Virus record (IMG/VR): IMGVR_UViG_2579778535_000003
DNA length: 5,702 nt
Strand: one strand, 5' to 3'
From: a virus
Taxonomy: Duplodnaviria; Heunggongvirae; Uroviricota; Caudoviricetes
The position numbers and the translations under genes were made by a program. How positions within the stretch are numbered: the first letter of the stretch is position 1; each line of letters begins with the position of its first letter. This document shows positions 2,890-3,787 of the stretch, one piece after another. Under the pieces are notes generated by a model. It saw nothing but the letters and a program-made list of their open reading frames with translations, ran no database searches and was not told where the DNA came from.

Positions 2890-3421
2890 AGAGGCTGGTA
2901 AGCGCGTATTCTACCAACAACCAAGTAGAGCATTCCACTTGGTTGTTGTTGTATTGCTTATGTCTACAGCCTGGTTTGTCGCCAATAAGTACATCATTTT
3001 AACATCCATTCCTTGGGGCGTATTAACTATACTCATTTTACCAATTGCAAGCAGCGCAACCCTGTTTCATAAGTTATCTGAAACCCAAAAAAACGTTGCT
3101 GAGGATTTATCTCGCAATGAACAAAGAAGGTTAACAAGGCTTATTAAAGAAAAAAGCCGGGCTACATTATTCATGCTTACGCTACAAATTTCGATAATAA
3201 TTTTTGTGGCATTGATTAGCCTTGGCAATGAGTCCTCTTTTGTTCAACAGCACATTCATACTATAAGTGAATTCGTTGTTTGTGCTTTGGTTTTTTCACT
3301 ATACTCATTAATTCCAGTTTTACTAGGGGTAAAGGAAGTTATTGATTTTGAAGGATTAATAAAAACACGAAAAACATTAAACAAGCGTAAAAAATCTGCA
3401 TTATCCAAGCTTGGGAAGTAA
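2882..3421 (+). CDS. Small integral membrane protein (179 aa, four predicted TM helices); candidate membrane effector
   Basis: ATG 2882 overlaps the upstream stop by 8 nt, with ggagaaatagaagagacc upstream. Hydrophobic segments at about residues 18-36, 40-62, 94-115 and 128-150, a charged loop at 63-93 and a basic C-terminal tail (KTRKTLNKRKKSALSKLGK). Confidence 0.8.
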   Translation: MNREAGKRVFYQQPSRAFHLVVVVLLMSTAWFVANKYIILTSIPWGVLTILILPIASSATLFHKLSETQKNVAEDLSRNEQRRLTRLIKEKSRATLFMLTLQISIIIFVALISLGNESSFVQQHIHTISEFVVCALVFSLYSLIPVLLGVKEVIDFEGLIKTRKTLNKRKKSALSKLGK

Positions 3422-3433
3422 TCCAAGCTTGGG
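3403..3433. repeat. Tandem direct repeat of the 13-bp unit ATCCAAGCTTGGG, each containing the perfect 10-bp palindrome CCAAGCTTGG
   Basis: Copy 1 at 3403-3415 encodes the last codons of the membrane protein, spacer aagta contains its stop, copy 2 at 3421-3433 fills most of the 21-bp gap before the convergent Q stop at 3443. Because the unit is palindromic the two copies can also pair as a stem of about 10 bp. Confidence 0.6.
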
Positions 3434-3442
3434 TTCGCACTC

Positions 3443-3787
3443 TTAAATCATTCTCAAAACACCATCAATAAAACCTAAAGCAGTTTGCAATTCCTTTCTG
3501 ATCGTACCGTCCGAGCATTTTCGCTTCTTTGCAATTGTACGGAGTGAAATCCCGATAACAAAATGTGCGATTATCAGTTCATATTCTTCAGGCCTATATT
3601 TACGTAACCGAGCCACACAGCCGTCTATCATAATGCCTTCATCATCATCGCATTGGAGTCGTGACTTTTTACCATGTGGCAAAAGCCCCTTGAAGCCCGC
3701 TGCTATCGGTTGCCAATCGACACCACTATTTTCTGCTGCAGCCCATGCCCCCCAGCGGTCTAAAACCTCATACATATCACGCCCCAT
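3443..3787 (-). CDS. Phage antitermination protein Q (Phage_antitermQ family, QuuD-like)
   Basis: N-terminal LDRWGAWAA and SIAAGFKGL followed by a Cys-rich segment (KSRLQCDDDEGIMIDGCVARLRK) match my recollection of DLP12 QuuD-type Q proteins. Preferred start ATG 3787 has the SD agaggtga 5 nt upstream (track start is GTG 3796). Overlaps the rusA stop by 11 nt. Confidence 0.75.
   Translation of the reverse strand: MGRDMYEVLDRWGAWAAAENSGVDWQPIAAGFKGLLPHGKKSRLQCDDDEGIMIDGCVARLRKYRPEEYELIIAHFVIGISLRTIAKKRKCSDGTIRKELQTALGFIDGVLRMI

Follow-up and report, generated by a model that had tools for sequence, protein, structure and literature searches.

A conserved stem-loop where a two-gene prophage cassette converges with the antiterminator gene Q

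We analysed a stretch of 5,702 nucleotides (nt) of Caudoviricetes DNA (IMG/VR record IMGVR_UViG_2579778535_000003; hereafter the window), which is part of a lambdoid prophage. In the window a gene for a small membrane protein, the second of two cargo genes, runs head-on into the gene for the antiterminator Q, and a repeat built from a palindrome lies at their junction. The relevant feature is an inverted repeat, the two arms of one stem-loop, and not a direct repeat or a pair of palindromes. Comparison of related loci shows, at the level of sequence, that a stable helix exists, is under selection, sits at the 3' end of the cargo cassette, travels with that cassette and is absent from empty sites. 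We consider it probable that the helix acts as RNA, as a 3'-end, terminator or insulator stem-loop of a putative Rex-like cargo operon that is transcribed convergently with Q.

An inverted repeat with self-complementary arms

A repeat search of the window finds ATCCAAGCTTGGG in two exact 13-nt copies at 3403-3415 and 3421-3433, 18 nt from start to start. Each copy contains CCAAGCTTGG (3405-3414 and 3423-3432), which is its own reverse complement, a perfect 10-bp palindrome; together the two are inverted arms that are 100% complementary and 8 nt apart. The stop codon of the membrane gene (3419-3421) lies between the copies and its last A is the first base of copy 2, which occupies the first 12 nt of the 21-bp gap (3422-3442) between the stops of the membrane gene and Q. 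The tandem palindromic repeat that the first-pass annotation had described at this convergent junction is therefore confirmed in its copies, its spacing, the position of the stop and the size of the gap.

In the predicted helix, 3403/3404-3415 pair with 3422-3433/3434, giving 12-13 pairs, a loop of 6-8 nt and a stem G+C content of only about 50%. Folding of both transcripts yields a stable stem-loop on either strand, at -21.2 to -21.8 kcal/mol on the plus strand (z -5.2 to -5.8) and -17.7 to -20.4 kcal/mol on the minus strand (z -3.2 to -4.9). The repeat is not a product of chance, since the pattern is expected only 0.2 times in the window with up to one mismatch and since the longest direct repeat at a spacing of up to 40 nt did not exceed 12 nt in 200 shuffles of the window, against the 13 nt observed. 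It resembles a direct repeat of palindromes because the arm is self-complementary, so that its reverse complement is identical to it; this self-complementarity arises from the codons for Ser/Thr-Lys-Leu-Gly, (T/A)CC-AAG-CTT-GG(N), which spell CCAAGCTTGG. Of the three identical bases beyond the palindrome, one is the A of the stop and the other two are wobble partners.

The junction is a natural one. It is identical in 14 of 5,426 complete Escherichia coli genomes, each of which has one copy of it, where the membrane gene ends, and it recurs with natural variants in the Shiga toxin (Stx) phages Stx2a_1447 and Stx2a_WGPS2 and in IMG/VR and metagenome contigs. A 38-nt query found one place per genome in 13 genomes, again always at the membrane-gene end. 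A commercial HindIII linker has the sequence CCAAGCTTGG; a cloning artefact was rejected on the strength of the natural variants across many independent genomes. Dispersed palindromic repeats of the repetitive extragenic palindromic (REP), enterobacterial repetitive intergenic consensus (ERIC) or miniature inverted-repeat transposable element (MITE) kind were ruled out by the single copy per genome, found only in this context. An Rfam search of 3380-3460 gave no match even at E values up to 1.

Covariation of the helix was assessed in 11 distinct junctions, which were gathered through similarity of the membrane protein or of the whole region and not through the repeat itself, so as to avoid circularity. 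A metagenome scan contributed just three loci to this sampling. The palindrome is broken in five of them (CTAAGCTTGG, CCAAGCTTAG, CCAAGCTGGG). In L088, L089, L096, L098 and L093 the two copies are neither palindromic nor identical and are still reverse complements of each other: the 5' and 3' arms read ACTAAGCTTGGG and TCCAAGCTTAGT in L088 and L089, GCTAAGCTTGGA and TCCAAGCTTAGC in L098, and ACCAAGCTGG and CCAGCTTGGT in L093. Across the 11 junctions 93.7% of cells are paired, compared with 9.8-59.9% when the partner is slid by 1-3 columns. Double changes occur at three pairs (AU/UG/GC/GU; CG to UA in four sequences; UA to GC), compared with none in any slid control, and the observed covariation score was reached in none of 500 shuffles. 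RNAalifold arrives at this helix as well. The non-coding 3' arm has a mean pairwise identity of 85%, against 47% in the adjacent 9 non-coding nt and 82-84% in the flanking coding sequence; conserved where its non-coding neighbours are not, the 3' arm is thus maintained by selection. The terminal U-G and G-U wobble pairs are standard only in plus-strand RNA, which is weak evidence that the cargo transcript may be the main functional strand. A scan of viral contigs for CCAAGCTTGG-N(4-14)-CCAAGCTTGG was set aside; it finds relatives, but it is biased in demanding both palindromes. The same pattern, applied to one genome per species, gave 58 matches in unrelated organisms and none related to the junction locus.

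Further relatives were sampled through the first cargo protein. Homologues of this protein form 28 clusters, a small family, from several genera of Enterobacterales (E. coli, Pantoea, Serratia, Enterobacter, Xenorhabdus, Proteus, Providencia and Franconibacter) and one Microbulbifer, and none of the clusters bears a name beyond generic or doubtful labels. Where the cargo pair of a distant relative converges with a Q of the PF06530 family, the arrangement recurs with different sequences: the last codons form the 5' arm, the loop holds the stop and the 3' arm takes up the short gap ahead of Q. The arms are AAGCTAGCCAA/TTGGCTAGCTT in L114, GCTAGCCA/TGGCTAGC in L115 and AGCCCG/CGGGCT in L111. The helices of L114 and L115 are shifted by about 4-5 nt, analogous and not homologous by column, and both loci were left out of the covariation count. 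Three of these relatives (L111, L114 and L115) have T4-5 directly after the stem on the minus strand, where L111 was also flagged as terminator-like, and L093 has, as read by eye, a T8 run after the stem on the plus strand. Where the cargo pair lies away from Q (Providencia L109 and L110, Proteus L116, Xenorhabdus L107), the operon is followed instead by a canonical terminator that is GC-rich and carries a T-run. The C-terminus in L105 is extended and its hairpin, AT-rich, is a different one, as is the hairpin of L112.

Function of the stem-loop and competing explanations

Of the explanations offered in the first-pass annotation, a hairpin between the converging transcripts is the one we favour, on the covariation, the conserved non-coding arm and the hairpins or terminators that end other cassettes at the same site. 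The stem-loop would act as RNA, presumably through termination, definition of the 3' end or insulation. On the plus strand it would form as RNA polymerase leaves the cargo operon, causing pausing or weak termination, and it could shield the 3' end of the cargo mRNA from 3'-5' exonucleases after downstream, probably Rho-dependent, termination in the antisense of Q. Its complement on the minus strand would act likewise on transcripts leaving Q, and the joint outcome would be insulation of two converging units only 21 bp apart. It is established that a barrier to exonucleases can fix a 3' end once Rho has terminated transcription in untranslated RNA.

The element lies between convergent genes, with stops at 3421 on the plus and 3443 on the minus strand, and is encoded as a stem-loop on both, which is the location of a bidirectional terminator; its stem and short loop also fall in the range of intrinsic terminators (about 5-14 pairs). 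Like canonical intrinsic terminators, such as that of the TIR and caspase cassette in L008, it has a stem of 10-13 pairs and a loop of 6-8 nt directly after the last gene of an operon, and some of its relatives carry T-runs (L093 on the plus strand; L111, L114 and L115 on the minus strand). It differs from them in that the window hairpin has no U-tract next to the stem, and in the low G+C content of that stem. Convergent gene pairs of E. coli commonly share hairpin-encoding bidirectional terminators that are unlike canonical intrinsic ones, and these hairpins position or pause polymerases (Ju et al. 2019 via Wang et al., bioRxiv 10.1101/2022.10.23.513370). The likeness to that class includes the very short convergent gap, the stem-loop on both strands, the missing canonical U-tract and the proposed role in fixing where transcription stops. 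The present element differs in being known from sequence alone, in having its 5' arm and loop within coding sequence that includes the stop codon, and in that the lysogen should transcribe just one of the two units, which would limit a collision mechanism to lytic growth. With the stabilising 3' stem-loops and REP elements of E. coli it shares a stable palindrome at the end of a gene, which could block 3'-5' exonucleases and define a 3' end; it differs in occurring once per genome, in this cassette only, and in having no REP consensus. By these comparisons, either membership in the bidirectional class of convergent-gene terminators or a barrier to exonucleases after Rho-dependent termination would fit better than an intrinsic terminator.

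Several observations weigh against the role proposed here. A U-tract (at least five U in eight, 0-2 nt past the stem) is missing on both strands in the window, and a scan for consensus terminators gave no flag there; the tail after the stem reads UUCGCACU on the plus strand and AUAAUGCA on the minus strand, where AUAAUGCAGA precedes UUUUUU. Efficient intrinsic termination at the site is therefore doubtful. A ribosome terminating at the stop codon in the loop would cover the 3' arm and could hinder folding when transcription and translation are coupled, so that folding may depend on translation. Q is presumably silent in the lysogen, and collisions between polymerases therefore cannot be the mechanism there. 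The covariation sample is small, with 11 distinct sequences and three co-varying pairs, its sequences are related by descent, and seven of the 13 pairs never vary; coding constraint explains part of the conservation of the 5' arm. Two loci, finally, go without the element: no hairpin of note is found in the Q-adjacent relative L113, and the L012 cassette, whose cargo gene overlaps Q, has no comparable hairpin.

The stem-loop might instead work mainly on the minus strand, as a terminator or pause site for transcripts of the early rightward operon leaving Q that guards the cargo genes from antisense transcription, its U-run being the complement of Lys codons (AAAAAA) upstream of the 5' arm. The stability of the minus-strand fold (-17.7 to -20.4 kcal/mol) would allow this, an extended helix (UGCG/UGCA) would place GAUUUUUU two nt beyond that helix, and in L111, L114 and L115 a run of four or five U follows the stem directly. 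In the window, however, the U-run begins about 10 nt past the main stem, and on this strand the end wobbles become A-C mismatches that leave 10 pairs. The flanking extension of the helix is not conserved; the A-run is weaker in L092 and L093 (AAGAAA), and L093 has its T8 run on the plus strand instead. We regard a mainly minus-strand role as unlikely. A site recognised by protein on DNA is very unlikely, whether as a pair of palindromic operators at a distance of 18 bp or as a single long inverted repeat for a dimeric or tetrameric phage or cargo protein. It would account for the two perfect 10-bp palindromes of the E. coli lineage, and the predicted fold of the first cargo protein resembles RexA and RdgC; lambda RexA binds DNA, and the second hairpin of the cassette also contains CCAAG/CTTGG. 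Yet the binding of RexA is described as non-specific (PMC11077077). The loss of the palindromes in five of 11 junctions rules out two independent palindromic operators, and one long symmetric site is less consistent with the wobble pairs and with a position at the 3' ends of both genes, away from any promoter position; RNA pairing accounts for the symmetric double changes and the G-T wobbles better than binding by a fixed protein would.

A small tandem duplication of a palindrome-bearing segment could have made both the repeat and the present stop codon, leaving the hairpin as a by-product of history. It would leave what all 14 E. coli copies show, an exact direct repeat of 13 nt spaced at 18 nt, and duplication of a palindrome yields a hairpin in one step. 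The first-pass annotation had suggested such an origin for the stop, but the copies diverge as reverse complements and not in parallel, and they do not form a clean tandem, copy 1 being followed by AAGTA and copy 2 by TTCGC. The stop codon and wobble pairing account for the three further bases of identity, and the 3' copy is conserved where neighbouring non-coding bases are not. The ending ...KLGK*, with the stop at the same place, is common to relatives down to 74% protein identity, and no single-copy relative with a longer open reading frame (ORF) running into the antisense of Q was found among the loci examined. Only a slim chance is left for this history, and even as an ancient origin a duplication would not explain why the helix is maintained. 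A recombination site or scar of the cassette, whether a target-site duplication, a folded site like attC or a transposon end, is highly improbable. In its favour, the element marks where an exchangeable cassette ends on the right, a hairpin also closes most of the other cassettes, and CATAA repeats flank an unrelated insert of 100 bp at this site in L104. The scar that the earlier annotation had placed at the edge of the insertion would nevertheless be a one-sided one: although the element is absent from empty sites, the left edge (1807-1830) has no copy or partial copy, the sole other match with up to one mismatch being at 2494 inside the first cargo gene. No integrase or transposase gene lies in the window, no GTTRRRY/RYYYAAC cores were seen by eye in 3395-3445 (GTTCGCA does not fit), and the element is single-copy in each genome. 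The hairpins of the other cassettes are ordinary terminators with T-runs, and the conserved flanks, Q on one side and the 1750-1830 block on the other, are enough for exchange by homologous recombination.

A cassette slot between Q and the presumed late promoter

The stem-loop is part of a two-gene cassette that lies between Q and a conserved block at 1750-1830. Relatives with the same Q family and other neighbouring genes share only about 1720-1830 and Q from 3443-3457 onward. Their cassettes consist of a three-gene set (L007 and the Stx1a phage L009), a TIR and a caspase gene (L008), genes for two hypothetical proteins and an MBL-fold protein (L011), or genes for a nucleoid-associated protein and a hypothetical protein (L012). 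With other Q families (L100-L102) similarity on the left side reaches only 1734-1749. The block thus goes with the type of Q and not with the cassette, which suggests that it contains the late promoter and Q-utilisation region on the minus strand; it may also hold the plus-strand promoter of the cassette. The terminator-like hairpin that follows it may be partly decayed in the window.

Empty sites were sought with a chimeric query in which 1720-1830 was joined directly to 3443-3787, and 13 genomes gave one uninterrupted alignment. In one of them (L103, strain Combat2C1) Q lies 17 nt from the conserved block, without cargo and without CCAAGCTTGG; the hairpin repeat is absent from the empty-site and other-cassette relatives alike. 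Three of the four other cassette types have a hairpin of their own between the cargo stop and the Q stop, which in the TIR and caspase cassette is a canonical terminator (AAGGGCGGGAACCCCCGCCCTT followed by TTT). As most other cassette types at the site carry their own hairpin or terminator, the stem-loop is best seen as a cassette-borne end element.

Two further loci bear on the slot. In L104 (2095-2205, strain TUM9757) the junction of Q and promoter is empty but for an insert of about 100 bp between direct repeats of CATAA, which points to a small mobile element or to what remains of a cassette since lost. In the K-12 prophage DLP12 (L118, 2957-5826) quuD is followed by the convergent porin gene nmpC, ahead of the lysis genes; this may be the same layout, with a convergent moron right after a PF06530-type Q. 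In the literature that we searched, neither a hotspot for cassettes between Q and the late promoter nor the junction hairpin was described.

Q itself is not truncated. Its 114 amino acids (aa) end in ...GFIDGVLRMI*, and residues 3-113 match positions 2-112 of the 118 of PF06530 (E 1.4e-45). As the first-pass annotation had noted, it is shorter than QuuD-type proteins, by 13 aa relative to the 127 aa of QuuD, with which it aligns up to QuuD residue 110. The further suggestion that the insertion clipped the 3' end is not supported: Q at the empty site of L103 has 115 aa and ends in ...GFIDGCICLILS*, Q next to other cassettes has 113-121 aa, and the Pfam family is covered to position 112 of 118. 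The cargo-free relatives lack the repeat, and their Q has 115 aa against 114 here. The last 5-7 codons (about 3443-3462) vary with the type of cassette, homology breaking at 3455-3462. By these comparisons the short tail appears normal for the subfamily and not caused by the cargo. A promoter-like site (TTGTTA-16-TACAAT, 9/12) lies at 3561-3534 on the minus strand, inside the 3' part of Q and pointing to the hairpin; it is also found in the other-cassette relative L008 (3619-3592) and could be chance in conserved coding sequence.

Features of the window (positions in nt; strand. where neither applies)
Feature	Position	Strand	Remarks
tRNA genes	2-78 and 80-155	-	ARAGORN: tRNA-Lys(UUU), tRNA-Met(CAU)
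DNA methyltransferase	205-1254	-	PF01555
65-aa ORF	1405-1602	-	
Terminator-like hairpin with T7 run	1720-1746	-	after the conserved block, tR'-like position; 3-4 pairs here, strong 10-pair terminator in empty-site L103
Conserved block	1750-1830	-	goes with PF06530-type Q whatever the cassette; missing with other Q families
Exchangeable cassette, two genes	1818-3442	.	about 1.6 kb; left edge 1807-1830, right edge 3443-3462, depending on the relative
Cargo gene 1	1858-2889	+	343 aa
Cargo gene 2, membrane protein	2882-3421	+	179 aa; stop TAA 3419-3421; PHROG 16807, no known function
Second hairpin of the cassette	2915-2948	+	12 perfect pairs, CAACAACCAAGT/ACTTGGTTGTTG; 10-nt loop; -19 kcal/mol, z -4.4
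Copy 1, 5' arm of the junction hairpin	3403-3415	+	coding: last base of a Leu codon, then Ser-Lys-Leu-Gly (C-terminus ...ALSKLGK*)
Loop of the junction hairpin	3416-3421	+	last Lys codon AAG and stop TAA (3419-3421)
Copy 2, 3' arm of the junction hairpin	3421-3433	+	non-coding; 3422-3434 pair with 3415-3403
Spacer from hairpin to Q stop	3434-3442	.	9 nt, unconstrained
Antiterminator Q	3443-3787	-	114 aa; PF06530, E 1.4e-45; convergent with cargo; stop 3443-3445
RusA	3777-4148	-	
DUF968 protein	4161-5207	-	
90-aa ORF		-	beyond the DUF968 protein

The second cargo protein has four hydrophobic stretches that can be read by eye as transmembrane helices, and the first has a predicted fold like that of RexA and RdgC in a medium-confidence model. 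From this model and the position of the genes, the cassette is plausibly a Rex-like exclusion system expressed from the prophage; such a system would need an element at its end to insulate it from the silent Q beside it. As in lambda rexA-rexB, a soluble protein with a RexA-like fold is paired with a small membrane protein of four hydrophobic stretches, and in Providencia prophages the cargo pair lies directly downstream of a cI-like repressor gene, which matches the place of rexAB in lambda. The cassette differs from rexA-rexB in that its proteins have no detectable sequence similarity to RexA or RexB, in the length of the first protein (343 aa against 279 aa for RexA), and in the location of the pair here between Q and the late promoter, convergent with Q. 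In PADLOC the first gene gave a single weak, non-significant match (the AAA ATPase domain of PtuA1, E 0.018, 11.8 bits) and the second none; Pfam has no family for the first and gave only a sub-threshold match to DUF3169 for the second, and a profile search against sequences of the PDB returned nothing credible.

The second hairpin of the cassette starts 26 nt past the stop of the first gene, within the 5' part of the second. It is kept in relatives with some complementary changes (for example CCGAGTG/CACTCGG in L114) and might set the ratio of the two cargo products. L003 (2122-3672, strain A34) has a first cargo gene broken into two short ORFs, a membrane gene annotated as shorter and no methylase, yet both arms of the junction hairpin are intact.

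The closest deposited phages are Stx2a_1447 and Stx2a_WGPS2, with 97.6% identity across 1780-3600. In both, and in several chromosomes of Shiga toxin-producing E. coli, stx2 comes after the methylase and tRNA genes. RefSeq annotation of close relatives gives the CAU tRNA as Ile (lysidine type), against Met by ARAGORN, and the tRNA set varies among relatives, Stx phages having Arg, Arg and Ile tRNAs at the place of window 2-155. Upstream of the 90-aa ORF, 5557-5637 on the minus strand weakly matches the Rfam family isrK (E 0.02), at 25.3 bits where the gathering score is 50.

Possible consequences for Q and toxin expression

A more elaborate role would make the hairpin a deliberately leaky stop, a valve working in both directions at a cassette hotspot, not described before, that separates Q from the promoter on which it acts. 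For want of a U-tract, some of the transcription of the cassette in the lysogen would continue through Q as antisense RNA, as the paQ antisense transcript does in lambda, and would damp Q. Once the prophage is induced, transcription coming head-on from Q would switch off the cassette at this hairpin. We regard such a valve as improbable; if true, it would mean lower late-gene and Stx2 expression in Stx2a carriers (Stx2a_1447, WGPS2 and PV15-279).

As the probable end element of the cargo operon, the junction hairpin is an ordinary element of terminator type, of the familiar kind found at the ends of operons and at convergent junctions, and of little importance alone. It is a useful reminder that a self-complementary stem arm makes an inverted repeat appear as tandem palindromes. 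Its context is worth more than the hairpin itself: a slot for exchangeable cassettes between Q and the presumed late promoter of lambdoid prophages with a PF06530-type Q, Stx2a phages among them. If transcription across the junction affects the level of Q, it could influence the timing of prophage induction and the output of Shiga toxin.

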